A stretch of DNA of 42,413 bases from Myxococcota bacterium (GCA_036339465.1 JAYZAY010000097.1:1-42413), one strand, 5' to 3'. Numbered from the stretch's first letter, positions 9,758-38,069 are shown. The notes: generated by a model from the sequence alone, not told the origin. A program made the numbers and translations.

Positions 9758-11101
9758 ATGACATTGCCAGCCAATCAGCTTGGCCTAGAGGCAGCGGAGA
9801 TCTCGGGTTCTGGATTGAAGAAGAGATCCATCGACTCTGTTCAAGTGGCGGGGGGAGAGGTCTCTGAGGCCTCGGTGAGGGTTTCAGAGTCGAGTTCTTC
9901 GGTGGCGCCTAACGCTGCGATGAAGTTCGGAGTCGAGTCCTCAAGTTTCTTGGATTCCAAGAGCTGCGAAGATTTCTCCTACCGAAAGCGTGCGCCCATC
10001 TGGGAATCGGTGACTTTGGAGCAATGGTCGGATTGGAAATGGCAGCTGAAACACAAAGTGACCACCATCGCCGAGGTTGTCGAGGTGTTTCCCGAATTGA
10101 AATTGAAAGGGGCTGAGCTCGAAGAAGCGGCTCGAATCTTTACCCTTGGGGCTACTCCCTACTATCTTGCTTTGGCCACGTCTTCTTCTCTGGCCGACCC
10201 TATTTTGCGTCAAGCGATTCCCTGCGAAGATGAATTGCATCTACGCGGCGATGAAGAAGCGGACCCTCTGGCAGAAGACCAATATATGCCCGTTCCTGGT
10301 TTGACTCATCGTTATCCTGACAGGGTGCTTTTGTATACGACCCATCATTGCGCGATGTATTGTCGTCATTGTAATCGCCGTCGTAAAGTGGGTGATCCGA
10401 GTTCGGCTCCATCTAAAGAGCAACTTTTGCGGTGTGTGGATTATGTTCGTGAACATCCAGAAGTGCGGGATATTTTGGTTTCTGGCGGGGACCCACTTAC
10501 GTTAGCAGACAGCCGTCTCGATTGGCTCCTGGGGCAATTACGGGCCATCCCGCATTTGGAGATTATTCGGATTGCTACGCGTATACCGGTTACGCTGCCG
10601 CAGAGAATTACCGAGGAGCTTGGGGCTCTCCTTAAAAAATACCACCCGATTTATGTGAGTACGCATTTCAACCATGTGGCCGAATGTACGCCAGAATCAG
10701 GTGAATCCCTGAGGCGACTGGCGGACTATGGGTGTGTTGTTAACAATCAGATGGTTTTATTGAGGGGCGTCAACGAAGATCCGTCTATGGTAAAAAAACT
10801 CAACCAGTGGCTTCTGAAAAACCGTTGCCGTCCTTACTATATTTTTCAATGCGACTCAGTGGAGGGCGTAGGGCATTTTAAGACGCCGATTGCCACAGGA
10901 ACGAGGTTGATTGATAATTTGCGCGGCTGGACCAGTGGTTTGGCGGTTCCTCATTATGTGGTGGATCTCCCAAAAGGAGGAGGCAAAGTTTCTGTACAGC
11001 CGGACTATTGTCTAGAATCGGAAGGTGGGCGGTACCGGTTTCGAAATTATAACGGAGAAGTCTATGAGTATGTTGATGGGGTGTCCCATGAGAACCCGTG
11101 A
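9758..11101 (+). CDS. KamA-family radical SAM aminomutase (lysine 2,3-aminomutase/EpmB-like)
   Basis: LTHRYPDRVL, CAMYCRHC, SGGDPL, RIPVTLPQRIT, GLAVP, PLP lysine in GGGK. True start may be downstream. Confidence 0.93.
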   Translation: MTLPANQLGLEAAEISGSGLKKRSIDSVQVAGGEVSEASVRVSESSSSVAPNAAMKFGVESSSFLDSKSCEDFSYRKRAPIWESVTLEQWSDWKWQLKHKVTTIAEVVEVFPELKLKGAELEEAARIFTLGATPYYLALATSSSLADPILRQAIPCEDELHLRGDEEADPLAEDQYMPVPGLTHRYPDRVLLYTTHHCAMYCRHCNRRRKVGDPSSAPSKEQLLRCVDYVREHPEVRDILVSGGDPLTLADSRLDWLLGQLRAIPHLEIIRIATRIPVTLPQRITEELGALLKKYHPIYVSTHFNHVAECTPESGESLRRLADYGCVVNNQMVLLRGVNEDPSMVKKLNQWLLKNRCRPYYIFQCDSVEGVGHFKTPIATGTRLIDNLRGWTSGLAVPHYVVDLPKGGGKVSVQPDYCLESEGGRYRFRNYNGEVYEYVDGVSHENP

Positions 11102-11130
11102 TTTCTTGGCCCTCTAATATGACTCCTGAG

Positions 11131-11170
11131 TACGACTAAATAGTACTAAGTAATACTAAATAATACTAAA
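11131..11170. repeat. Four tandem 10-bp AT-rich repeats (consensus TAATACTAAA)
   Basis: tacgactaaa tagtactaag taatactaaa taatactaaa, in a convergent intergenic region. Confidence 0.85.
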
Positions 11171-11296
11171 TACCCGGCGTGGTCAGAGTACAACACAGAC
11201 CTAGGCTTGGCCGGTTATACGAAGTTGTGGCTTTTGGGGGTCTCAGGGTCTTTTGCGTAGAGCATTGTGCGTTTGGGCTGATTGAGATGAAGGTTT

Positions 11297-12388
11297 TTAT
11301 GAACGAAATTGCGAAATCCACGCTTGCAGTTCTTGTGCCTTTTCCGGGTGAAACCCTTCCCGGGCATCGATGATTTGGTTGAGCGAAGTTTTATAGCCAT
11401 AGCGAGTTGGATCGGTACTTACAAAAATACCACAGGTTGGTGTTCCCAGTGCCACTGAAAGGTGCATGGGGCCAGTGTCACAACTGACGGTAGCTGTTGC
11501 GGCGGCCATGAGGGCACTTAGGGTTTGTAAATTGGTGTCTGGGGCGACAATGACACGGTCACAGTTTTTTGAAATGGAGTCGGCTATGGCTTTTTCCGTA
11601 GGGCCCCAGGTACAGAGAATCGGCACGCCTTGCCCACCCATAATATAGGCCAGCGCGACATATTGTTGTGGGGAAAGTTGTTTTTCCTTTAGTCGAGCCC
11701 CTAAATTCAGGATAAAGAATGGGTGGTGATGGAGATTGTGAAGCTTAAGTATGGCATCGGCTTTAGGGCATTGTGGGGCGGTGAGAGAGGGGGTCGTGAC
11801 CTGGGTATGGGGAGGGAATTGCCTTAGTAATTCCAGTCGCATTTCAATTTCGTGGGAAGTGTCTTGTTGTGCTTTAGGGATCCCACAGGCGTGGTCAAAC
11901 ATTTCGGAGAATTGGAGTTCTGTGATCGCACCACAGTATTGTGCCCCGGCTAAACGGGTCATTAAGTGGTGGGTGAGAGAAGGGACGGTTGGATTTCCAG
12001 CATCCAACGCAATTTGGTATTTTTCTCTGCGCAATTGTGTCATGGTTTTAACCACGCCGTGGTTGCCGAAAATCTTTCTTTTGGTAAATGGAATAATTTG
12101 GACACCCGATTTATGATTTTTCAAAATCTCCTGGCTGCGCCTATTTCCCAACAAGTGAATGGCTCCGTGTGGGTAAATATTACGTAGGGTTTCTAATAAT
12201 GGGGTCATCATTACGAGATTGCCGACCCGCTCATCGATTCTCACAACAAGAATTTTTGGACTTGGAAGATTTTTCGGAAGGGCAAGCTTGGGGTGGCGGC
12301 GAAACAATCGAACGATGACTCCAAGCAAGAACCTACGCCCCGTGAATTCAATCCATTCTCGGAAATCTTTCAGATTTCGACCTGCCAT
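11297..12388 (-). CDS. Glycosyltransferase family 9 (LPS heptosyltransferase-like)
   Basis: KILVVRIDERVGNLVMMTP N-terminal motif; SCDTGPMHLSVALGTP. Confidence 0.92.
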   Translation of the reverse strand: MAGRNLKDFREWIEFTGRRFLLGVIVRLFRRHPKLALPKNLPSPKILVVRIDERVGNLVMMTPLLETLRNIYPHGAIHLLGNRRSQEILKNHKSGVQIIPFTKRKIFGNHGVVKTMTQLRREKYQIALDAGNPTVPSLTHHLMTRLAGAQYCGAITELQFSEMFDHACGIPKAQQDTSHEIEMRLELLRQFPPHTQVTTPSLTAPQCPKADAILKLHNLHHHPFFILNLGARLKEKQLSPQQYVALAYIMGGQGVPILCTWGPTEKAIADSISKNCDRVIVAPDTNLQTLSALMAAATATVSCDTGPMHLSVALGTPTCGIFVSTDPTRYGYKTSLNQIIDAREGFHPEKAQELQAWISQFRS

Positions 12389-12397
12389 AGAGAGCGT

Positions 12398-12970
12398 TTA
12401 AACCTGGGCTTGCAGAAAGCCTTTAATGTATTGATAAGCAGAGGTTAAGGAGTAGGCCAGGCTGATATAAGTGAGAAGGAGACCGATTTCATAGCAATCA
12501 ATGACGCCTTCAAATACGATGAAATCGACGTAGTATTTGTAATGCATGATGAGTGCACAGGTTCCCAAGGTGCTAAAGACGGTTTTGAGTTTTCCGCCTT
12601 CTCCAGCGGCGATGATAATTCCATCGGAAGCGGCGATAGCTCGTGTGCCCGTGATGACAATCTCTCGGGTGGCAATGACCATGACAATCCAAGCAGGAAC
12701 CCATGTTCCCGGTAGTTGCAAGAGGGCGATGAGGGTTATTAGGGCGAAGAGTTTATCGGCGAGGGGGTCCAAAAATTTTCCGATGACGGTGACACTGTTG
12801 GTTCGTCGGGCGATGGCGCCGTCTACGATATCCAAAATTCCCGCTAAGCCATAGAGCAGGCTTGCCCAATAGCAGAGTTCGCGGGTTTCTACACCGGGCC
12901 ACAGCATCCAAAGGATAATGGGGAGAAGTCCTAGGCGACCGACGGTAATAATGTTTGGCAAATTCCACAT
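12398..12970 (-). CDS. pgsA: CDP-diacylglycerol--glycerol-3-phosphate 3-phosphatidyltransferase
   Basis: MWNLPNIIT start; DIVDGAIARR...GKFLDPLADK signature; RE and GKLKT motifs. Confidence 0.93.
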   Translation of the reverse strand: MWNLPNIITVGRLGLLPIILWMLWPGVETRELCYWASLLYGLAGILDIVDGAIARRTNSVTVIGKFLDPLADKLFALITLIALLQLPGTWVPAWIVMVIATREIVITGTRAIAASDGIIIAAGEGGKLKTVFSTLGTCALIMHYKYYVDFIVFEGVIDCYEIGLLLTYISLAYSLTSAYQYIKGFLQAQV

Positions 12971-27950: not shown

Positions 27951-29579
27951 ATGTGGAAGAACAATTTTCAAACATCAAGACGCGTGGCAACGGGGAAACG
28001 AATGAGCGAAGGTTGGTGGGTGACGGGGCTTGTTTGGAAGCTATTTTCGTTGACCTTTTTATCCTGTGGTATGGCGTGGGCGCAACCTTCATTGGTTTGG
28101 GTGCGTGGGGCGGACGCCGGGGCGTCTCGTATTGCAGAGACGGATATTGTCTCGGTCCTTGCGGCGGTTGAGAGCCCCCTTCGGGTGATCAACGAGGTTG
28201 AGTACGCTAGAATTGCCAAGGAACTCGGTTGCTCTCGAAATCACTTTGGAAAATCGAAATGTTTCAAAATTGTCGCAGCCCGTTTGGGGGCGGACTTGGT
28301 GCTGGTGATTGAAAGTTCACGTCGTCTCTTCCGGAAAGATCAGAGGGGACAAGATCAACTTTTTGGGAAGTTCACCCTCTACCGTCGTGAGCAAACCCGG
28401 TTATTGTTTGCCCGCCGGTTTATCTTGGAAGAGGGGAAGATTTCTGAATCGGTTCGTCATGAGGTGGGGGAAAATCTTTCCACGATTGTTTCTCAGTGGA
28501 GTGGTGGCAACGCGGTGGCAGACAGTGCTTCTACGCCCACGGTTCCGACTGGCTCGCAAGCGTCTCAGAGTGTGCCCATGGAGCAAACAGCTTCCCAAAG
28601 TAGGTCGGAGCTGTCTGTGGCTTCAAAGCCTGGGGAAGTTTTTGAGGTGGATGGGAGGTCACCCGAACTGGCCTCCGGAGGGGATGGGGATAGGTCGGAT
28701 GACTTTCCCTTGGATGCTAAAGAGGAAACCGTGAATGGTGACGAGGAAGCGCCGCGCTCCTCTGATTCCGAAGCAAACCCCGAGGATTTTGATTCTGGAG
28801 TTTTTCGCCATTTTCAGTTTGAGAAATCTCGGGGCCTCGTTTTTGAATTTGGAATGGCGAGTTTTCTCCGTCAAGGGGCGTTGGTCGAAGGGGATGTGCC
28901 ATTTGTGCATAAATTTGGTTATCAAGATTCGGTCGGATTTGAAAAAAGTAGGGTTGGGCTAAAGCTTGGTTTTTCTTTTTACCCCCTTAGATGGTGGCAG
29001 CCAACGGCGTGGTGGGCGCAATTTGGTTTGAAAGTCAGGGCCAATATGTACGGTCAAAAAGTGGAGCAAGAGGGTCATTTGGGCCTGACGGTGGAAGGGC
29101 GCTTGGTTACCGATATTCGGGCGGGTCTTTTGTGGGAAGAAGTTCTGACCGATTCGGCCCTCAGTCAGGTTCGCGTTGGTCTTATGTATGGAAGTCTCAA
29201 TTTTCCTGGGGGCCGTGGTTTTCCAGATATTGGTTATCGCTTTATGGAGTTAAAGGGAGGGATCACCATGATTTTGTCCGAGGATTTTGATTGTGGTGTG
29301 AATCTTGGATTGATGTATCCCCATCGGGTGAGTGGGCAAGTGGAGACCCTCGGAAATCCTAGAAGCAACTTCTTTTTTGGGTATGAATTTGGCACGCGGT
29401 TGGCCTACAGCTTGCCTTGGTTGGATGCGGTGGCTATGTCAGGCTTTGTGGATGTTGATTATCAATCCTTGCGGTTGAAATATGAAGGTTTAGGGGAATA
29501 TGACTCCACGCCGGTGGTGGGGGCGGATATTCGAGATGATACCTGGTCTTTGGCACTGGGGTTGAGGGTGGTTTTCTAG
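27951..29579 (+). CDS. Exported protein: N-terminal domain, acidic linker, C-terminal outer-membrane beta-barrel
   Basis: Signal peptide ending AWA-Q; Ser/Glu-rich linker; amphipathic strands; terminal WSLALGLRVVF. Start may be ATG 28002. Confidence 0.75.
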   Translation: MWKNNFQTSRRVATGKRMSEGWWVTGLVWKLFSLTFLSCGMAWAQPSLVWVRGADAGASRIAETDIVSVLAAVESPLRVINEVEYARIAKELGCSRNHFGKSKCFKIVAARLGADLVLVIESSRRLFRKDQRGQDQLFGKFTLYRREQTRLLFARRFILEEGKISESVRHEVGENLSTIVSQWSGGNAVADSASTPTVPTGSQASQSVPMEQTASQSRSELSVASKPGEVFEVDGRSPELASGGDGDRSDDFPLDAKEETVNGDEEAPRSSDSEANPEDFDSGVFRHFQFEKSRGLVFEFGMASFLRQGALVEGDVPFVHKFGYQDSVGFEKSRVGLKLGFSFYPLRWWQPTAWWAQFGLKVRANMYGQKVEQEGHLGLTVEGRLVTDIRAGLLWEEVLTDSALSQVRVGLMYGSLNFPGGRGFPDIGYRFMELKGGITMILSEDFDCGVNLGLMYPHRVSGQVETLGNPRSNFFFGYEFGTRLAYSLPWLDAVAMSGFVDVDYQSLRLKYEGLGEYDSTPVVGADIRDDTWSLALGLRVVF

Positions 29580-29593
29580 TCTCTTTTGGATCC

Positions 29594-30220
29594 TTAAAGC
29601 TGCGTCATCAGCTCTCTACCAAGGTGGATAATCTCCTGGATAACCGAGGTTCCGGCAATGTAATGGCCACCGTCATCGTAGCCAAGTTCCGCCACTTTTA
29701 CCGCATTTTCGCAAACTTGGCTCATTTCATCCCATACAGATCCCAAGAGGAGATCGAAATCCCACCCACCTTCATCTCGCCCAAAGCGATTTTCGCTGAC
29801 CAAGCTCATAAAAATGATTTCGATAGGATCGACTCCTTCGTATTCTGCAACGGCTATGCGGAGGTCGTCCCATCTCTCTTCAGCGAGAAATGCCTGCCAG
29901 TCATCGGCATCGGGGTAGCGGTCGTAATAAGCGAGCCCGAATTCTCCCGCTTCGAGATCCACAGCGCAGAATACGTCATAATCACGCAATAATGTTTGAT
30001 AGCGCTTTTCAAACTGATTCGCGACATCGATTCCCGTGCTGGTGGGCTGTAGAGTGCTCTTGTCGTCGATGATGGCGTAGCTTTGCTCAATCAGCCAGGT
30101 CAGAATGGGTGTGAGAAGATCTTCATCTTCTGCAATGAGGGCAGCTGCATCGACATGGGGATCTTGCATCAGCCTAAGGAGATAGAGTCCAGCGTATTGG
30201 ATACGTCTTTGAGTTTGCAT
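29594..30220 (-). CDS. Acidic hypothetical protein, last gene of the PspA cluster (possible N-terminal winged helix)
   Basis: ATG 30220 lies just downstream of the DUF350 stop; 'WLIEQSYA...LQPTSTG' resembles a wHTH wing; FCAVDLEAGEF and RWDDLRIAVAEY blocks. Confidence 0.8.
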   Translation of the reverse strand: MQTQRRIQYAGLYLLRLMQDPHVDAAALIAEDEDLLTPILTWLIEQSYAIIDDKSTLQPTSTGIDVANQFEKRYQTLLRDYDVFCAVDLEAGEFGLAYYDRYPDADDWQAFLAEERWDDLRIAVAEYEGVDPIEIIFMSLVSENRFGRDEGGWDFDLLLGSVWDEMSQVCENAVKVAELGYDDGGHYIAGTSVIQEIIHLGRELMTQL

Positions 30221-30224
30221 GGGA

Positions 30225-31121
30225 CTAGCCAAGAAAGCAGGCATTGATGATGAATGCTATCACGATGGCCGAGCTGCCCTCGATCAAAGCAGCGCCCCAG
30301 TTCTGGTCGGTTGCGATCTCTTCATCCAACAAGGCACTGGGCAAGATTAATTTGTCGACCATGTAGCGGCTTGTGAGGAGTAAAAAGACTGCGATCACAA
30401 ACCATACAGCCAACCCAGGAAGAGAATCAGCGAATTTGATATAACCCGAGAGAAGCACCCCGATGGCCACGAGATTCATTCCGGCACTGATACCCGCTGC
30501 GGCGTTGTCTTTTTCGATCTCTTCGTGGAGGTCGAAACGGGTTACTTTTTGGTAGATAAAAGCAAAGAGGACGAAGAAGAGTTGGCCCGTGATAAAGAGT
30601 AGAAGCGTGGAGACGATCCCATCGACCACCAAAGGGCTCTCTCCGGAAAGTGCAGCATGGACGATGAGCCCTGAGCCGATAAAGCTTCCACATTCGGCGG
30701 CACCCGTGCCCAAATTTCTGTCTTCCACCAGCTCTTTGACATTGCAGAAGTGGTGAAAAATGATTTTGTCGTTGACGAGCCTCGCGATGTGCATCAGCGC
30801 GATTCCTCCCAAACACCAACTGACGGTCGCACCGATATCGCTTAGATATGCGAGAGCCTGTGAAGTGGCATCGCCTCCGTGCTCTTCACTTTGCAAGACG
30901 CTGAGTAGAATCATCCCCACCGCAAAGAGGTAGCCCGAAAATGCCACCGCCACGGCTTTGTTGTCGGCCTTGGTCAGCTGCTCATTGAGATCATAGGGCG
31001 CTAGCCAGTCAAAGATCCTCTTGGCGATGTAGAACACCATGAGAATCGTCAGCAGGTAGATTAGAGCGTGAGGGTCTAAAAGTTCCCAAATAAAATTGGT
31101 GTCTAGCATGTCTTCATTCAT
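30225..31121 (-). CDS. Tandem DUF350 (YjfL-like) membrane protein
   Basis: Repeated motifs YDLNEQLTKADNKAVA, KELVEDRNLG, FDLHEEIEKDNAAAG, EEIATDQNWG; GAGGA SD before ATG 31121. Confidence 0.9.
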   Translation of the reverse strand: MNEDMLDTNFIWELLDPHALIYLLTILMVFYIAKRIFDWLAPYDLNEQLTKADNKAVAVAFSGYLFAVGMILLSVLQSEEHGGDATSQALAYLSDIGATVSWCLGGIALMHIARLVNDKIIFHHFCNVKELVEDRNLGTGAAECGSFIGSGLIVHAALSGESPLVVDGIVSTLLLFITGQLFFVLFAFIYQKVTRFDLHEEIEKDNAAAGISAGMNLVAIGVLLSGYIKFADSLPGLAVWFVIAVFLLLTSRYMVDKLILPSALLDEEIATDQNWGAALIEGSSAIVIAFIINACFLG

Positions 31122-31134
31122 GACTCTATCCTCG

Positions 31135-31971
31135 TTATTTTCCACCGAAAGACCGTGAACTGCGGTTGTAGGAGCTTCCCCGCAAAGATGAACTGCGTCC
31201 AAAGCCACCGCTTCGCCGCGCTTTCGGGGCTCGCTGAGCTTGGAAACTCCTTTGTGACGACGTTGGATTTTTTAGACGTGCCTTGATCTTGGTGGCATTT
31301 TTGCCCCTGTTGGGCGAACGAATGTTGTCTCCAAGTCTCGATGAACCGGAGGATGCGTAGCGTGAGCTGTCGTATCGCTGACGACCGTTATAGGTCCCAT
31401 TGGGAACAGTAGGATAGGCGTGGTAGGCAGGAGGGTAGGAACCCCATCCCCAGGGAGAGAAATAGGGTCGATGGGGAGCAAAGAGGTAACCGAGCATGAG
31501 ACCCGTGCCAAGCCCCGGGGACCAACTGGAATGGTAGTAGTGATTTTGCCCGTAAATGGTGGGATTGCCCTTATATTCAACCTCCGCCGCGCCGTCGCTG
31601 CTCGATTGAATCTTGATGGTGGCGACCTCTTGCACGTCGCCTTTGGCAACTTCTGTGGTCAGAGAAAATCCCTTGACGCCTTCCTCCCCAAACTCTGTAA
31701 CATGGATATAGTCCACCTTGCCATCGCCGTTGAGGTCTAAGTTATTGACCCCGCTTTCCGGAGCGTTGAGTCGTTTTTCAAATGCTTCGGCGTCTTTGGC
31801 TTTTTCTAGGATCTGGCCAACCGCACGGAGATCCAAACCCTTGTCGGCATCGATCATTTGTGTGACGGAGACGTTGTAGTTCTGGTCAGGAGCCTGCATA
31901 CCCGCACAAAGGGAGAGGCCAGCGATGCAAAAGAACGCGGCCACCATCATTTTGAAGTATTTCTCAGCCAC
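31135..31971 (-). CDS. Exported protein with EF-hand-like loop and Arg/Ser/Gly-rich tail
   Basis: GGAGG SD; signal peptide; NNLDLNGDGKVDY; GLMLGYLF segment; tail RSGGFGRSSS...RSFGGK. Confidence 0.8.
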   Translation of the reverse strand: MAEKYFKMMVAAFFCIAGLSLCAGMQAPDQNYNVSVTQMIDADKGLDLRAVGQILEKAKDAEAFEKRLNAPESGVNNLDLNGDGKVDYIHVTEFGEEGVKGFSLTTEVAKGDVQEVATIKIQSSSDGAAEVEYKGNPTIYGQNHYYHSSWSPGLGTGLMLGYLFAPHRPYFSPWGWGSYPPAYHAYPTVPNGTYNGRQRYDSSRYASSGSSRLGDNIRSPNRGKNATKIKARLKNPTSSQRSFQAQRAPKARRSGGFGRSSSLRGSSYNRSSRSFGGK

Positions 31972-32007
31972 AATAAACCTCCTCCATGTTCTCTCTTTGT
32001 ACGAACA

Positions 32008-33693
32008 TTAAAAATACTTCTCCCAACCCTGCATGTATTCTTCGTAGACCACCGGTGAGGTCAGGGTGTTGATCTTCTGATGGCTAGTGGTGAGCTGATT
32101 TGCCCCAAATGCCAGGGATGCCCGTATTTTCTCTTCAGTGAGGTGGCGTGTTTGGATGTTATCCAACTTTGCCCCCTCGAGCTGGGCCCGCAAGGACGTC
32201 ACAGAATGCCATCGCGCATCGCCTGCCAACCACCACCCCCAGTCGCCCATGGATGGCACCGTTTCGTGGTAGGGCAAGGCGACAAAGCCTGCGCTTTGAA
32301 TCGTACGCCCGATGGTCAGAAATGCCTCTTTTGCATAATAGGGTGAGGTCGCTTGCTGAACGATGATCCCACCGGGCGCCAACCGTTTGCGAAGGAGCTG
32401 GTAGAAGCCGAGAGAATAGAGTTTCGCCAATTCAGGCGCATTGGGATCTGGAAAATCGAGAATGACGACATCATAGATACCCCGCACCTGCTCTAAGAAT
32501 TTGAGCGCGTCTATGTTGACAATCCGAACCGTCCCAACCTTGCTCAATGTTCGGGGCGATAAAGCGCGCTGGTTGGGTATCCAGAGGTCACGCATTCCAG
32601 ATGGAATGAGTGCGTGGTTTTCGACCAAAAACAGACGTGAATCGTTTAGGCTATTTTGATTTAACGCCACCATTTTTGGGTGGGTACGCGCCAATTCAAC
32701 AATCATGGGGTCGAGGTCACAAAGCGTGACGGTCTCAACACTTGGATATTTAAGTAGCTCGCGGGTTGCGAGACCATCGACACCACCTAGAACAAGAACG
32801 TGGCTTTTTTTCTTGGCGATAAGCATGGCGGGATGAACGAGATTTTCGTGATAGATCTGCTCATCTTGGCTATTGAACTGTAAGTGGCCATTGATGAACA
32901 TCGACGTGGCCCCTGTTTTGGATTCGGTTAGGACAACGTGTTGGTATTGGGAGGTGTTGGAGTAGACGATGGGCTCGCGATAGAGGGCCTGTTCTGCGTG
33001 GGCTGTCCAGGTGTCTGCAATGTAGAAGCCTAGGGTGACAAGCACAAGGCTGAAGGCGGTCAACCCTGAGAGTTTCTTTGGATGGTCGACATGGCGGTAA
33101 AAATAAATAAGGCCAAAAGCGGCGGTGGAAACGGTGGTGATTCCCAACACGAACGCCATTTGGGTTGTCGAAAAAAACTTGGGTAGAATGAAAACCCAGG
33201 CCAAGGCACCGCAAAGTGCGCCCACATAATCCATTTTGAGAATACCACCAATATTAAACTTAATCTCTTCGCTGTATTTGGCGTTGATCCGCATTAGGAG
33301 TGGAATCTCAAAACCGATGAGCAGGCCGATAGAGCCGATAAAGAAATACTGGACCAAGACAAAATGTTCGGGGAAACGCCCGTAGGCATCAAGTATGATG
33401 ATTGGGGCAAACGCGCCACAAATACCGAGGGTTAACTCGGCGAGAAGAAACTTGGATAAAAGTCCCCGATCGATGAGGTGTTTCTGGAGATCTGAGCCGA
33501 CGCCCATGAAGAACATCATCACCCCGATAATGATGGCCCATTGCTCCACGGAGTTTCCAAGCAAGTCGGAGGAGAGCTTACTCAGGGTGTATTCATAGGC
33601 CAGGCCGCACCCGCCCATGACAAAGATGCTGAAATAGAGCACCAAACTCTCTGTCGTTGGCCATCGAAACTTCCGTGCACCGCTTGTATCCAT
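32008..33693 (-). CDS. Membrane-bound spermidine-synthase-like (polyamine aminopropyltransferase family) protein
   Basis: About 7 N-terminal TM helices (GLAYE, GFEIPL, DYVGAL); SQYQ, YHENLVHP, VLGGxDG, DFPDP, LYSLGFY, VPSMGDWG. Confidence 0.92.
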   Translation of the reverse strand: MDTSGARKFRWPTTESLVLYFSIFVMGGCGLAYEYTLSKLSSDLLGNSVEQWAIIIGVMMFFMGVGSDLQKHLIDRGLLSKFLLAELTLGICGAFAPIIILDAYGRFPEHFVLVQYFFIGSIGLLIGFEIPLLMRINAKYSEEIKFNIGGILKMDYVGALCGALAWVFILPKFFSTTQMAFVLGITTVSTAAFGLIYFYRHVDHPKKLSGLTAFSLVLVTLGFYIADTWTAHAEQALYREPIVYSNTSQYQHVVLTESKTGATSMFINGHLQFNSQDEQIYHENLVHPAMLIAKKKSHVLVLGGVDGLATRELLKYPSVETVTLCDLDPMIVELARTHPKMVALNQNSLNDSRLFLVENHALIPSGMRDLWIPNQRALSPRTLSKVGTVRIVNIDALKFLEQVRGIYDVVILDFPDPNAPELAKLYSLGFYQLLRKRLAPGGIIVQQATSPYYAKEAFLTIGRTIQSAGFVALPYHETVPSMGDWGWWLAGDARWHSVTSLRAQLEGAKLDNIQTRHLTEEKIRASLAFGANQLTTSHQKINTLTSPVVYEEYMQGWEKYF

Positions 33694-33695
33694 CG

Positions 33696-34346
33696 CTATG
33701 ACCGACTGTAGACCGTTATATGCCTGGGATTGAGATCAACACTGTAATTCGCCTCAACTGTGCCGTCTTCCCATCGGACAAGGGTGAGGAACTGTTCCTC
33801 CTCCTCATCCTCAAATTCCCAATACTCGTATTCTTGGGGCTTCAGTTCGTTGTGATCGCGGCAAAAAATGGCATATCCGTGCTCTGAGGCCGTGTATGCA
33901 GTGCCTTCGTAGGTCAATTGTTTTGCCCCTGATAGGGTATCCAGATCCCCATACTTGAGATCCAATGTTTCGAGCGACGGTTGGGCAATGGTAAGGGAAA
34001 CAGTGAGCGCGTCATCTCGCTGAAGGGTTAGGAAAACATTTGATTCGCCGCGATCTGCCTCCAACTCGACCCAACGTTCGGAGCCCGATTTATGCAGATG
34101 GCGTGCAGTGATCTGCGCATCAAAGGATTCGGATCGTAGCCCCACGTCGTCTAGGTGAATGATTCCTCCCGAGCGAACATTCTCAATGGAGAGCTCCGTA
34201 CTTTGTGGATCCTGATTTTCTTTTTGGAGGGCCGAAAGCTTCGCCGCATTGGTGAGTTTGTTGGGCCCGCCGCCCTTAATTTGTGTTTGGTAAATATAGA
34301 GGAACACACAGCCAAACACGAGCGATACAATACCCACGGTAATCAT
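33696..34346 (-). CDS. DUF4178 domain protein with N-terminal TM anchor
   Basis: LSIENVRSGG, ERWVEL, LTYEGTAY, YEYWEF, LTLVRWEDG; context next to pspA; AAGGA before ATG 34346. Confidence 0.75.
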   Translation of the reverse strand: MITVGIVSLVFGCVFLYIYQTQIKGGGPNKLTNAAKLSALQKENQDPQSTELSIENVRSGGIIHLDDVGLRSESFDAQITARHLHKSGSERWVELEADRGESNVFLTLQRDDALTVSLTIAQPSLETLDLKYGDLDTLSGAKQLTYEGTAYTASEHGYAIFCRDHNELKPQEYEYWEFEDEEEEQFLTLVRWEDGTVEANYSVDLNPRHITVYSRS

Positions 34347-34440
34347 GAAGTTTTCTCGATCCTTTCTTAAAGACAACACGTAAGCTCAATTAAGGCCGTC
34401 TAGAACCGCCTACGAATAAAAGTATGGAGGGCACAACGCT

Positions 34441-35148
34441 TTAGCCCATTCCCATTTTGGCTTTGAGTGCGGCCAGCGAGTCTGCAGCTTTGACTTCACC
34501 TGCGCCCCCAGCCAACGCTCGGTCGATTTCGGCATCAACGTTGGTTTCAACCATGGCAATCTCCCCATAGGATTCGGCCAGCGCTTCTTCTTGAGAAACC
34601 TTGTCTTTCATTTTCTCTAGCATCGCGAGGGTCCCTGATGAATCGACCTTGGCAAGCTGTTGATTGAGCTTCCGCGTTGCTCCGGCAACCTTTGCTCGAG
34701 CGGTGAGGGTTGTTAGCTCGCTCTCCCAACTGGCGATCTGAGATTTGAGTTTCTTTACGTTTGCTTCGAGTTGACCGACCATGCCATCGTGCTTCTGTAG
34801 ATCCTTGGCAGTGGTCAAAGCCAAAGAAGATGCCGCTTCTTTCTTGGCCAAGGCTTCGCCGGCCAACCGGTCACCTTCGGCCGCATCAAGCGTGCCGCTT
34901 TGGGCTTTCTGTAGCAACAACATCGCTTTCTTCTCGTAGGTGACGGCTTGATCTTTCGTTTCTTGGAGGTCCCGTCGAGCGCGGATTTGAAGAGCTTTGA
35001 CCTCCGCGAGACTCCGCATACCCAATTCCAGATCCTTTTTGAGATCTCGAATTCCCTGCTGGGTCATCTTGATCGGGTCTTCGATCTGGTCGACGGCGGA
35101 GTGCGCTTCAGATTCGGCAAATTTAAACAATCGTTTGAAGATCCCCAT
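34441..35148 (-). CDS. pspA: PspA/IM30 (bacterial ESCRT-III) family protein
   Basis: MGIFKRLF amphipathic start, IEDP, long coiled coil, 'LEKMKDKV...EALAE', terminal LAALKAKMG; AGGAG SD. Confidence 0.95.
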   Translation of the reverse strand: MGIFKRLFKFAESEAHSAVDQIEDPIKMTQQGIRDLKKDLELGMRSLAEVKALQIRARRDLQETKDQAVTYEKKAMLLLQKAQSGTLDAAEGDRLAGEALAKKEAASSLALTTAKDLQKHDGMVGQLEANVKKLKSQIASWESELTTLTARAKVAGATRKLNQQLAKVDSSGTLAMLEKMKDKVSQEEALAESYGEIAMVETNVDAEIDRALAGGAGEVKAADSLAALKAKMGMG

Positions 35149-35163
35149 GATTTTCTCCTAAAT

Positions 35164-35586
35164 TCAAGCGGTTCCGAACCGGATCAATTCGTTGGCATTT
35201 TCAGCCAAGGCCAAGCTTAAAGCATTGATGGAACCCTCAAGCTCGTTGAGGTCGAGGTGTTGCAATTGCAGTGTATCGCGAAAAATAACGCGTTCTCCGG
35301 AATCGTCGAGTACAAAAGCACCGTGAACAAGAGTTCGATTCATTTGGAGGAGCCGTTTAAAAACCCCTTCTTTTGTGCTCTTAAGCAAAACAATAAATTG
35401 CTCTAGGATCAGGATAGAATCTTCGCAGTCAATCACGAGGTTTTTGAGTCCCCGACTCTCGTCATCGACGATAACCAGTTGCTCTTCGGTTACTTCTTTG
35501 GAAATGTTCAGGCCGAGATCAGACAAATAGCCCTTCACCAATTTTAAGTTATCTAAGCCTTGTAAGTCTTCAGTATCACTCATCAA
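35164..35586 (-). CDS. YbjN/CesT-like (T3SS-chaperone fold) protein
   Basis: KRLLQMNRTLVHGAFVLD...IFRDTLQLQHLDLNELEGSINAL; small and acidic; directly upstream of pspA. Confidence 0.85.
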   Translation of the reverse strand: MMSDTEDLQGLDNLKLVKGYLSDLGLNISKEVTEEQLVIVDDESRGLKNLVIDCEDSILILEQFIVLLKSTKEGVFKRLLQMNRTLVHGAFVLDDSGERVIFRDTLQLQHLDLNELEGSINALSLALAENANELIRFGTA

Positions 35587-35942
35587 CGGCCTCCTTTGTG
35601 TGTTTTCTCAAAATACGCCATGGCCTCGTTTAGCCCTTTGGAGATCTCTCCAGCGGTTTCCGTTTGCTCTGGAGTCTGGTGGTGCTTGTCCGGGTGGTAT
35701 TTACTAAGAAGCCGGCGATACGCGGCTTTTATTTCCGAATAGGATGCACCAGGTGCCAATTCTAAATTGGCGTAGTAGCGCGCCTCAAGCGGGTTTGGCT
35801 GCGACGCTGGCCAATGGGATGGACCGAATGCATCCCCATCTGGCTGAGAATCAAAAACCTCATGGTTTTCCACGATAGGTTTAGGGGCATGACGCTGCAG
35901 GTTGCTTCGAGCAACGTTTATGAGTCGCCGCCAAAGATTCAT
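35583..35942 (-). CDS. Small J-domain (DnaJ class C) protein
   Basis: YYANLEL...EIKAAYRRLLSKYHPDKH...LNEA with intact HPD; 4-nt overlap with next gene. Start ATG 35942 or 35966. Confidence 0.92.
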   Translation of the reverse strand: MNLWRRLINVARSNLQRHAPKPIVENHEVFDSQPDGDAFGPSHWPASQPNPLEARYYANLELAPGASYSEIKAAYRRLLSKYHPDKHHQTPEQTETAGEISKGLNEAMAYFEKTHKGGR

Positions 35943-36249
35943 ATCCAGTTTCGAAGTCGCCTCCATCGGAGGACTTCTACAGCAAATTTAAGTGGTGAGT
36001 CCAGAACTCGCGGACTAAAAGGACATTTGGCGCTGGTATATTGTGGTGGGGCGATCTCTGCTGAAACGTAGGTCACGACCGGCATATCAATGCAGCTCAG
36101 CAAACGCTTGCAAGCGCTCACACCGAGACAGGGCTTGATGTTCAAAGCCATCGAACCGGCTCTTTGTCTTGGTTGTCCGGGGGGCGGTTGGTTTTAAGCC
36201 ACTATTCGAGGCACTGAGGCCAGGCACGAAAGTTGTCATACCGGCAAAA

Positions 36250-37173
36250 TCAACTTTTTTGGGTCGTGGCCAAGTAAAATGATTCCAACGAGCCGCCTCG
36301 TTCGATTCCTAGGATACGACCCCCATCTGCAAAGATATGACTCACCGTTGCGTGGATGGCGTCTTCAACGGAAAGTCCATGGGGAACGAGACATTCCAGA
36401 AATCGGTCATTCAGTGAAAATGAGTATTGAGGGAGGTGCGAAGCCAGTTTTTCTAGGGCAATGGATGTTTGGGGGGCCAGTTCGATTTTGAGTTGTTGGT
36501 TTTTGCCCGTGAGTTCATCCATGGAGCCAGAGGCCACAATTTTACCTTCGTGGATGATGGCGCCGTGGGTGCATAATTTCTCCAATTGCTCTAATTGGTG
36601 GCTGGAGATGACCACGGTGGCGCCCTGGAGATGTTCTTGGATGATGGCTTTGACCCGAAGGGTTTGGGTGGGGTCGAGCCCTGCGGTGGGTTCGTCGAGA
36701 AATATCAATTGGGGTTTTCCCGCGATGGCCTGGGCTAGGCAAAGGCGTTTGTACATACCATGGGAAAGCTCTTTGACTTGATTTCGAGCTGCATCTTGTA
36801 GGTTGACGAGTTGCAGAATGCGATTTCTTTCTTTTTTTGCTTGGTTTTTTGGAACACCCGCGAGGTGGCAAAAGTATAGCGCGATATTTTCCACCCGCTC
36901 TTGCGGGGGAAGGAAGGAGTCTTGGGGTAGAAAACCAATTTTACCCCGGAGTTTGTGAAGGTTTTGGAGGGGGGTGCCAAGAATTTTGGCCTTGCCTGAG
37001 GATGGTTTAAGCCATCCCCCAAACATCCCAAAGGTGGTGCTTTTACCGGCGCCATTTTCGCCGATTAAACCAAAGATACTGCCTAAGTTGATGGAAAGGT
37101 TGAGTCCATTGACGGCATGGGTGTGGCCGAAGCTCTTGGTGAGGTTGAGGGTTTCGATGGCGAAGTCGGTCAT
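36250..37173 (-). CDS. ABC transporter ATP-binding protein
   Basis: GENGAGKST, LSHGM, FLDEPTAGLDP, SSH. Confidence 0.95.
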   Translation of the reverse strand: MTDFAIETLNLTKSFGHTHAVNGLNLSINLGSIFGLIGENGAGKSTTFGMFGGWLKPSSGKAKILGTPLQNLHKLRGKIGFLPQDSFLPPQERVENIALYFCHLAGVPKNQAKKERNRILQLVNLQDAARNQVKELSHGMYKRLCLAQAIAGKPQLIFLDEPTAGLDPTQTLRVKAIIQEHLQGATVVISSHQLEQLEKLCTHGAIIHEGKIVASGSMDELTGKNQQLKIELAPQTSIALEKLASHLPQYSFSLNDRFLECLVPHGLSVEDAIHATVSHIFADGGRILGIERGGSLESFYLATTQKS

Positions 37174-38069
37174 AGGTTTTTCCGAGAAAAGATAATGTAG
37201 GTGGCACCCAAGTAGAGCGTGAAAAGGCTTCCATAGGCCAGGAGCCCATATCCGAATTCCTTCAGACTGGCATGCCAGAGCTTGTGGGTAAAATGGGTGG
37301 GGCTGAGATGGCTAAAGAGTTGGACGAGGGTGTTGTCTTCACCCCACTGCCAAGCCATGACCGTGGGGCCTGAGGAAATGAGGGTGAGCAATAAGGCACA
37401 AAGAAAGAGGGCGCCCCGATTACTGGGACTGAGGACAGAGCCTAAAAAGATTAAGGCGCAGTACGTGACGCCGATAGTAAGTATGTTGATGAGGAAGATG
37501 AGGAAGCTCTGAAAAGTATGTTCCCCTTGGAAGAGCCCGATTGTTTCCTCGGACCAGAGGGCGAAGATGGCAATTATGGCTATCAAAAGGAGACCCAGAA
37601 TAAATTGTCCGCAATGGGCCAAGAGTCGGCCCAATAGGATTTCCAGCCTGGAGGCACGGAAGGTTTCAAAACGAAAGGTGTGACTCGCGAGGGGGGAACT
37701 TAGAACATCGTAGGTGGTTAGCAGGATTAAGGTGGGCAGGATCCACGATAAAGCCCACAATAGAATGGCAAAGATGGGTGTGCCCATGATGGCAGTGTTG
37801 ATTTGTTCGATCGGAAGGCCACTGCAGAATCCCATGAAGCCTTGGTAGAGCTCACTGCGGGCATAGTCAGCTGCATTCAGGGCTACGCTGAATGATAAAC
37901 CCTCTTGTTCGGATGCCTTTTGGATTTGGTTGTCTAACTCTTGGTTTAAAATGAAATAGCCGGTGGCCGCCATAAATCCGGTGAGGGCGTAGAGGCCGCT
38001 GGCGAGGAGGCCACGTTTCGAGTAGAAGAGTATCCGCAATTCGAAGAAGGCTATGCGCAATAGGGTCAT
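37170..38069 (-). CDS. ABC-2 type permease
   Basis: About 6 TM helices, SRLEILLGR motif, terminal FSRKNL; ATGA overlap with the ATPase. Confidence 0.85.
   Translation of the reverse strand: MTLLRIAFFELRILFYSKRGLLASGLYALTGFMAATGYFILNQELDNQIQKASEQEGLSFSVALNAADYARSELYQGFMGFCSGLPIEQINTAIMGTPIFAILLWALSWILPTLILLTTYDVLSSPLASHTFRFETFRASRLEILLGRLLAHCGQFILGLLLIAIIAIFALWSEETIGLFQGEHTFQSFLIFLINILTIGVTYCALIFLGSVLSPSNRGALFLCALLLTLISSGPTVMAWQWGEDNTLVQLFSHLSPTHFTHKLWHASLKEFGYGLLAYGSLFTLYLGATYIIFSRKNL

Follow-up and report, generated by a model that had tools for sequence, protein, structure and literature searches.

What role does a PspA gene play when it stands in one tight row with a J-protein gene, a membrane-embedded enzyme of the polyamine synthase type and a terminal gene of no recognisable family? 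The question is raised by a stretch of 42,413 nt from a Myxococcota bacterium (GCA_036339465.1, JAYZAY010000097.1:1-42413; hereafter, the window), in which eight minus-strand open reading frames (ORFs), g1 to g8, fill positions 29594-35966 exactly, as expected from an original prediction of eight packed and co-oriented genes at this site. From 5' to 3', they encode a small J-domain protein (g1), a CesT/Tir-like protein (g2), PspA (g3), a DUF4178 protein (g4), a seven-transmembrane (7TM) protein fused to a SpeE-like domain (g5), an exported or N-terminally anchored protein (g6), a tandem DUF350 protein (g7) and an acidic winged-helix protein (g8). The domain labels given to the genes in that prediction agreed throughout with Pfam and NCBIfam. 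The prediction of an envelope module centred on PspA and tied to a polyamine-type enzyme was likewise borne out by matches to PspA_IM30 (E 4e-40) and NF002956 (565 bits). Proteins of the PspA/ESCRT-III kind serve membrane repair across all domains of life. As detailed below, the cluster probably represents, in a form specific to its lineage, a PspA-aminopropyltransferase envelope module that is conserved but uncharacterised and whose functional parts we infer from sequence.

The eight genes are conserved as a unit

A gene-neighbourhood survey for the eight-gene architecture revealed its co-conservation in genome G009, a relative from the same order but another family, as well as in loci L005 and L009. 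The cluster locus of G009 (L003) carries all eight genes in identical order at 51-78% identity to the window, while the flanking genes of the window have no match in that genome. Since the gene order is shared while the flanks are unrelated, the eight genes constitute a real unit, beyond what chance would bring together. This layout, referred to as type A, is also complete in L005 and L009; a profile scan with a DUF4178 alignment uncovered three metagenome contigs that carry parts of it. Locus L090 holds g1-g5 up to the contig end, and L091 holds g4-g8. The DUF4178 protein (g4) occurs in two of 41 related genomes, namely the source genome and G009, and 21 of 401 genomes encode a g2-like protein.

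The wider family came into view through g8, for which 70 homologue clusters and no Pfam domain were found and in whose alignment acidic and aromatic positions are invariant. With one genome scanned per species, g8 relatives turned up at 130 loci, spread over Verrucomicrobiota, Calditrichota, Thermodesulfobacteriota, Myxococcota, Oligoflexales, Nitrospinia and other groups. We kept 80 of them, and the ORFs of 81 loci were searched with profiles of the window's proteins. Apart from g8 itself (81/81 by construction), these profiles detected DUF350 in 72 loci, g6 in 71, PspA in 65, SpeE in 61, g4 in 6, and g1 and g2 in 5 each. Full flanks (6.5 kb or more upstream, 4 kb or more downstream) were available at 43 loci; of these full-flank loci, PspA and g6 were each present in 41, DUF350 in 38, SpeE in 35 and SpeD in 31. 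Thus, g8, which had been taken for an addition of the variant found in the window, is a core partner of a wide PspA-aminopropyltransferase family. It is not always linked to the cluster, since a g8 homologue without any other detected cluster gene was found at L036, L038, L059 and L070; L036 has about 10 kb of sequence on each side.

Most g8 loci show the system in another, commoner layout (type B), ordered SpeE-g6-DUF350-g8-K+ channel-CesT_Tir-PspA-AdoMet_dc-TerB/AAA+. Type B shares g5, g6, g7, g8, a CesT_Tir_1 protein and PspA with the window but differs in gene order and content: it has the K+ channel, speD and the AAA+ ATPase, all three missing from the window, whereas the J-protein is missing from type B. 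Among 35 type-B-like loci, the K+ channel was present in 29, the TerB/AAA+ ATPase in 26 and DUF4178 in only 1; none of five type-A loci contains an AAA+ ATPase. A further arrangement is seen in two Oligoflexales loci, L010 (6788-10621) and L030 (261-4089), which carry J-CesT-PspA-DUF4178-g6-g8 and lack SpeE and DUF350 genes at this site. There, g6 and g8 thus remain with PspA in the absence of the enzyme; in each of the two genomes, an AdoMet_dc gene lies on a separate contig. At the G009 locus, an RCK-type K+ channel gene (10629-11681, +) lies divergently 148 nt upstream of the J-protein gene and is followed by a Peptidase_M50B-like gene (11731-12444, -); neither is present at the window locus.

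The core architecture belongs to a published operon class

Among published systems, the cluster comes closest to the "second major group" of CesT/Tir-PspA operons, which were identified by comparative genomics with a Shewanella example (Ravi et al. 2024, mSystems; PMC11237479), rather than to E. coli yjfIJKLMC, with which it had been compared at the outset. According to the main text of that paper, operons of this group have six to seven genes and comprise a 7TM-spermine synthase, an eight-transmembrane (8TM) DUF350 protein, a novel lipoprotein carrying a "Ctha_1186 domain" and DUF4178, and they end in a ribbon-helix-helix (RHH) regulator in some cases. The window displays the same CesT/Tir-pspA adjacency, 7TM-SpeE fusion, 8TM DUF350 and DUF4178. 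Moreover, g6 occupies the position of the novel lipoprotein as an exported, lipoprotein-like product that has an N-terminal hydrophobic anchor with a Cys and no Pfam match. On the other hand, the window differs from this description by a J-domain gene in front and by the acidic winged-helix g8 at the end, in the place that the RHH regulator holds in some of the published operons. The core architecture is therefore already published, and the J-protein in front is, by the main text of PMC11237479, an addition of this copy. Indeed, the words DnaJ, J-domain, Hsp70 and DnaK are absent from that main text (the supplementary tables were outside the search). The paper raises the monitoring of polyamine concentration as one option for the second group, and it poses as an open question how bacterial PspA polymers assemble and disassemble without a dedicated AAA+ ATPase.

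With E. coli yjfIJKLMC and the "third group" of the same classification, the window shares a PspA paralogue with a CesT/Tir-like partner, DUF350 and a polyamine link. As described there, however, the third group combines CesT/Tir-PspA with a glutathionylspermidine-synthetase-like ATP-grasp protein, whereas the window cluster is without ATP-grasp, DUF2491 and DUF1190. Its DUF350 tandem has eight transmembrane (TM) helices rather than four, and its enzyme is a predicted aminopropyltransferase. That no ATP-grasp gene accompanies the cluster had been anticipated, and no such family was found among the 11 ORFs scanned. With respect to the canonical Psp system (PspF-PspABC), the partner PspC (PF04024) was not found in the source genome, which is 92.8% complete, meaning that genome-wide negatives are not proof of absence. 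The expected lack of pspBC and pspF hence holds for PspC, while PspB and PspF were not searched for.

A J-protein gene was added to the PspA operon in this clade

The J-protein is encoded in all seven type-A loci that have upstream sequence and in no type-B locus. It was not found either in the remaining CesT-like loci of the phylum, 19 in number; PspA adjoins the CesT-like gene in 17 of them, and the two others (L104 and L106) are only ~2.07 kb long. As the original prediction had it, the J-protein is an addition to the PspA operon, and one specific to this clade. The protein consists of an N-terminal amphipathic helix, a variable linker and a J-domain with HPD; this motif (H91, P92, D93) and R14 are invariant in the seven type-A sequences and in 29 family members. 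Comparison of its N-terminus with that of PspA (helix alpha0) by hhalign returned a probability of 63.5 and an E value of 6.8e-5 over 25 columns, and a scripted score of 28.8 for the same pair stands against no more than 20.3 when columns were shuffled 60 times and against 12.6 for the reversed alignment.

The small J family to which g1 belongs comprises 53 clusters with a conserved MSLxRRLxNVAR start and is present in 82 of 301 genomes of another phylum. In 30 J loci of this phylum (L122-L151), a Peptidase_M50B-like membrane protease adjoins the gene in seven cases, PilZ in three and DUF4178 in two. Linkage of a J-protein to PspA was not found in five other g8-bearing genomes, where the search returned, besides J-domains of the generic kind, a single protein with HSD that has no PspA in its neighbourhood. 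From these observations, g1 appears to be a membrane-proximal J-protein that the PspA operon of this clade has recruited.

The source genome has two full-length HSP70 genes. In chloroplasts, the HSP70B-CDJ2-CGE1 system is described as both assembling and disassembling VIPP1 rods (PMC12798727), and VIPP1 is bound by the winged-helix protein VIA1, reported to have three TM helices and two winged-helix domains (PMC13505992). As far as these accounts go, the chloroplast system and the window have in common an ESCRT-III-family polymer alongside a J-protein and a winged-helix protein, a likeness that is an analogy only. The two winged-helix proteins also differ, VIA1 being membrane-spanning with two such domains and g8 soluble. 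By this analogy, g1 may bring DnaK to PspA.

The enzyme retains the active-site motifs of aminopropyltransferases

The g5 product exceeds the cut-off of the polyamine aminopropyltransferase equivalog NF002956 (565 versus 472 bits), and its best matches in the PDB are thermospermine synthase 6bq2 (5.8e-31) and the Thermus thermophilus structures 3anx (1.8e-29) and 1uir (5e-29). The motifs were located by alignment of g5 to 6bq2 and 1uir, and DEQIYHE, GGGDG, CDLD and DFPDP are kept across 55 family sequences; on this evidence, the SpeE-type set of active-site motifs is intact in the family. GGGDG, the acidic residue after beta2, DxxDP and YHE presumably have the cofactor-binding and catalytic roles assigned to them in the SpeE family, and the Asp of GGGDG would be expected to disfavour S-adenosylmethionine (SAM). 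Because the SpeE motifs are kept, including this Asp and DxxDP, aminopropyl transfer is favoured over methylation, which leaves the former of the two chemistries first proposed as the candidate and the latter disfavoured. Seven hydrophobic segments are conserved throughout the 55 sequences, and in all of them Lys and Arg residues concentrate on the N-terminus and loops 2, 4 and 6 (mean 9.9) relative to loops 1, 3 and 5 (mean 1.4). A tblastn search of the source genome returned g3 as its sole PspA and g5 as its sole SpeE.

Aminopropyl transfer draws on decarboxylated SAM (dcSAM), and genes of the AdoMet_dc (speD) type accompany the enzyme in many related loci. In G009, a 128-aa AdoMet_dc gene (L003, 3729-4115, -) directly follows g8 and overlaps its stop codon by 4 nt. 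More broadly, speD was detected in 47 of the 81 g8 loci and, as given above, in 31 of the 43 with full flanks.

The exported protein ends in a conserved basic tail

An AlphaFold2 (AF2) model of g6 with a predicted local distance difference test (pLDDT) score of 80.7 consists of an N-terminal helix, a helical pair, a DLNxDGKVD loop, a beta-sandwich and a basic tail, with low model confidence towards its end (residues 248-273). The EF-hand-like and RSGGFG features ascribed to this protein are indeed present as DLNGDGKVD, which resembles a DxNxDG Ca-loop, and RRSGGFGR, both conserved in the family. Within the tail, SPNAGK..IKAPLKxPTxSQKSFQ and SGGFGRS are conserved, and the C-terminus reads GGK in 56 and xGK in 67 of 70 sequences. 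The fold itself gave no usable match, with a best VIA-align Z of 3.9 and unnamed clusters as the sole return from Atlas.

Alternative readings of the terminal gene and of the cluster

The AF2 model of g8 (pLDDT 93.3) could support a regulatory function. Its residues 1-85 form a winged helix that matches DtxR-like, PadR and MarR proteins at Z 6-7.3 (VIA-align), its best Foldseek matches are DtxR/MntR at E ~0.1, and Atlas returned MarR and Fe_dep_repress as leads, all under the bar. These matches, along with the RHH regulator that at times closes the published operon by the account of PMC11237479, would fit an ordinary winged-helix transcription factor, a MarR/PadR/DtxR-like sensor regulating the operon in place of PspF or of the RHH protein. 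We regard this as somewhat unlikely. Z values below 8 may reflect merely a common fold, and the family is uniformly acidic, with an isoelectric point (pI) of 4.08 for g8 and a median of 4.31 (range 4.05-4.89, n = 40). The winged-helix part has a pI of 4.40 and seven Lys and Arg against 13 Asp and Glu residues, and the consensus of its presumed recognition helix has one basic position and is otherwise mostly hydrophobic or acidic. This composition argues against an ordinary DNA-binding role. The C-terminal domain is conserved as well; the fold lists are occupied by the N-terminal winged helix, and an ESCRT-II chain is absent among the matches listed (49 Foldseek and 50 VIA-align rows). Seen from the enzyme, the cluster might instead be a membrane-sited operon for polyamine biosynthesis and export, in which g5 makes spermidine or thermospermine, the 7TM part or DUF350 passes the product outwards to stabilise the envelope, PspA is merely co-regulated and no protein is modified. 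The score of g5 above the equivalog cut-off, the thermospermine and triamine synthases as its closest solved relatives, the co-encoded speD of 31 of 43 full-flank loci and the polyamine-monitoring option named in PMC11237479 are all compatible with such an operon. It would, however, leave unexplained the xGK end and tail motifs of g6 and the linkage in 41 of 43 loci; at L010 and L030, g6 and g8 accompany PspA although g5 and g7 are both missing there, and no speD was found in the source genome. On this balance, we consider a pure polyamine operon unlikely.

A role in anti-phage defence, with PspA and a modifying enzyme as its components, was part of the original prediction and appears very improbable. 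The patchy distribution among relatives (g4 in 2/41 genomes, g2-like proteins in 21/401) is what a defence system might show, and huge phages are reported to carry PspA with DUF350 neighbours (bioRxiv 10.64898/2026.10.24.761521). Against this, PADLOC assigned no family to seven of the eight proteins and linked g5 to nothing but the mad2 methyltransferase (5.3e-14), a generic methyltransferase-level match, and a Pfam scan found no nuclease, NTPase sensor or toxin-like domain. GC content and GC content at third codon positions (GC3) of the cluster also match those of the flanking genes. Horizontal acquisition, for which this comparison had been suggested as a check, is hence without compositional sign.

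Several observations count against the reading that we favour, in which the cluster is a local version of the PspA-aminopropyltransferase module. The class is known from comparative genomics only, and the literature search found no functional study or experiment on any of its members, in keeping with the initial description of its function as uncharacterised. The likeness between the N-terminus of g1 and alpha0 is short (17-25 columns, Prob 63.5) and could be explained by convergence of amphipathic helices, and PspA lies nearby in just one of the 30 J loci L122-L151. Given the Lys and Arg bias and the seven helices of g5, its catalytic domain may lie outside the cytoplasm by the positive-inside rule, a placement that rests on a hand-drawn 7TM model. 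At codon 305 of g5 (32779-32781), the window reads Val, which gives GGVDG instead of GGGDG, whereas 54 of 55 homologues have Gly. Contigs of the public runs X1, X2 and X7, that is, three of three covering the site, have C at 32780 and thus Gly305, and the Val is a private allele of this assembly or an assembly error. Of 126 SpeE columns that are highly conserved, the window's g5 also departs from six, which ranks it second in this respect among the 55 sequences. A decaying g5, as the GGVDG motif and the lack of speD might suggest, is weakened by the Gly read in X1, X2 and X7 and by consensus departures that are not outliers.

The donor is the remaining difficulty. As predicted, no speD was detected: AdoMet_dc (PF02675) has no match in the source genome (the class 2 type, PF01536, was not searched for), an unfiltered hidden Markov model (HMM) built from the 47 cluster SpeDs reached a best E of 0.86 there, and contigs from X2 and X7 span the end of g8 without speD. 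Either local loss of speD or a gap in the assembly accounts for this absence. The window is a reduced form of the system, without the speD and the K+ channel of G009, and the aminopropyl donor is unexplained here.

Locus organisation and neighbouring genes

Table 1. Features of the PspA cluster and its upstream spacer (window coordinates)
Feature	Position	Strand	Size and supporting match
g1, small J-domain protein	35583..35966	-	127 aa; Pfam DnaJ (PF00226) E 2.6e-12
g2, CesT/Tir-like (YbjN-like) chaperone	35164..35586	-	140 aa; PF22550 CesT_Tir_1 E 2.1e-46, YbjN 1.5e-7
g3, PspA/IM30 (ESCRT-III superfamily)	34441..35148	-	235 aa; PF04012 PspA_IM30 E 4e-40
g4, N-terminal TM anchor + DUF4178	33696..34379	-	227 aa; PF13785 E 3.4e-9, above cut-off
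g5, 7TM + spermidine/thermospermine-synthase-like fusion	32008..33693	-	561 aa; Spermine_synth 2.5e-36; NF002956
g6, exported or N-terminally anchored protein	31135..31971	-	278 aa; without Pfam/NCBIfam family
g7, tandem DUF350 (YjfL-like) membrane protein	30225..31121	-	~298 aa from M30; PF03994 x2, E 1.1e-57
g8, acidic cytoplasmic winged-helix protein	29594..30220	-	208 aa from M9; without Pfam/NCBIfam family
283-nt spacer 5' of g1, likely promoter region	35967..36249	-	ORF coordinates

The genes listed in Table 1 are separated by distances that range from a 4-nt overlap to 61-94 nt at most. The TTG start of g2, preceded by AGGAGG, overlaps the stop codon of g1 by 4 nt, and a gap of 15 nt leaves the CesT/Tir-like gene and pspA adjacent. 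Shine-Dalgarno-like sites were found 5' of g2, g3, g6 and g7. Longer ORFs exist for g7, extending to 31208 and overlapping g6, and for g8, extending to 30244. The true start of g7 is likely M30, where the alignment with G009 begins at residue 30 and which is preceded by GAGGA, and that of g8 is likely M9; g1 probably starts at M10 (35939) and g4 at M12 (34346). Hydropathy profiles revealed an N-terminal anchor in g4 (residues 9-32) and in g6; by the same profiles, g5 has seven segments and g7 about eight. A scan for promoter and terminator consensus sites returned them no more frequently than in shuffled sequences, and no convincing promoter emerged in 35967-36249.

Downstream, a 542-aa ORF (27951-29579, +) of no Pfam or NCBIfam family converges on g8 and ends 14 nt away; no relative of it was found at the syntenic locus of G009. 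Upstream past the 283-nt spacer, a co-oriented ABC ATPase gene (drrA-like) and a multi-TM ORF without family occupy 36250-38069 (-), neither of which is kept beside the cluster in G009.

Proposed mechanism and implications

In the mechanism that we propose for this lineage-specific module, PspA, as an ESCRT-III-type protein, would assemble on the stressed inner membrane, with the CesT/Tir-like g2 serving as its putative small chaperone or regulator. Through its alpha0-like amphipathic helix and its HPD-bearing J-domain, g1 would recruit DnaK either to PspA itself or to the membrane sites that PspA occupies, and DnaK recruited in this way could drive both assembly and disassembly of PspA. The part played by the J-protein would be taken by the AAA+ ATPase in the commoner layout and by CDJ2-HSP70B for VIPP1 in chloroplasts. 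The 7TM-SpeE protein g5, with a catalytic domain that may face outwards, would use dcSAM as the donor of aminopropyl groups, with either a polyamine or the basic, lysine-ended tail of g6 as the acceptor. The DUF350 protein g7, the TM-DUF4178 protein g4 and the acidic winged-helix g8 might be membrane and adaptor parts of the same complex.

A bolder version of this scheme, to which we give little credence, would make the cluster a complete bacterial ESCRT-like machine. The g8 product would act as an ESCRT-II/VIA1-like adaptor that nucleates or anchors PspA, and the J-protein would insert beside or into PspA assemblies by mimicry of alpha0 and recruit DnaK as an ATP-driven remodeller, equivalent to the AAA+ ATPase of type B and to Vps4. 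The whole would be coupled to an outward-facing aminopropyltransferase modifying the lysine-ended tail of g6. If true, this would be protein aminopropylation of a new kind, taking place on the periplasmic face.

The module raises a chemical question, that of the target of a membrane-embedded and possibly outward-facing aminopropyltransferase and of its donor where no speD is detectable. It also provides a candidate adaptor in g8, found together with PspA at 41 of 43 loci. Finally, a PspA operon with its own J-protein, where sister operons have an AAA+ ATPase, leads to a testable hypothesis for this machinery, namely that DnaK is the motor.

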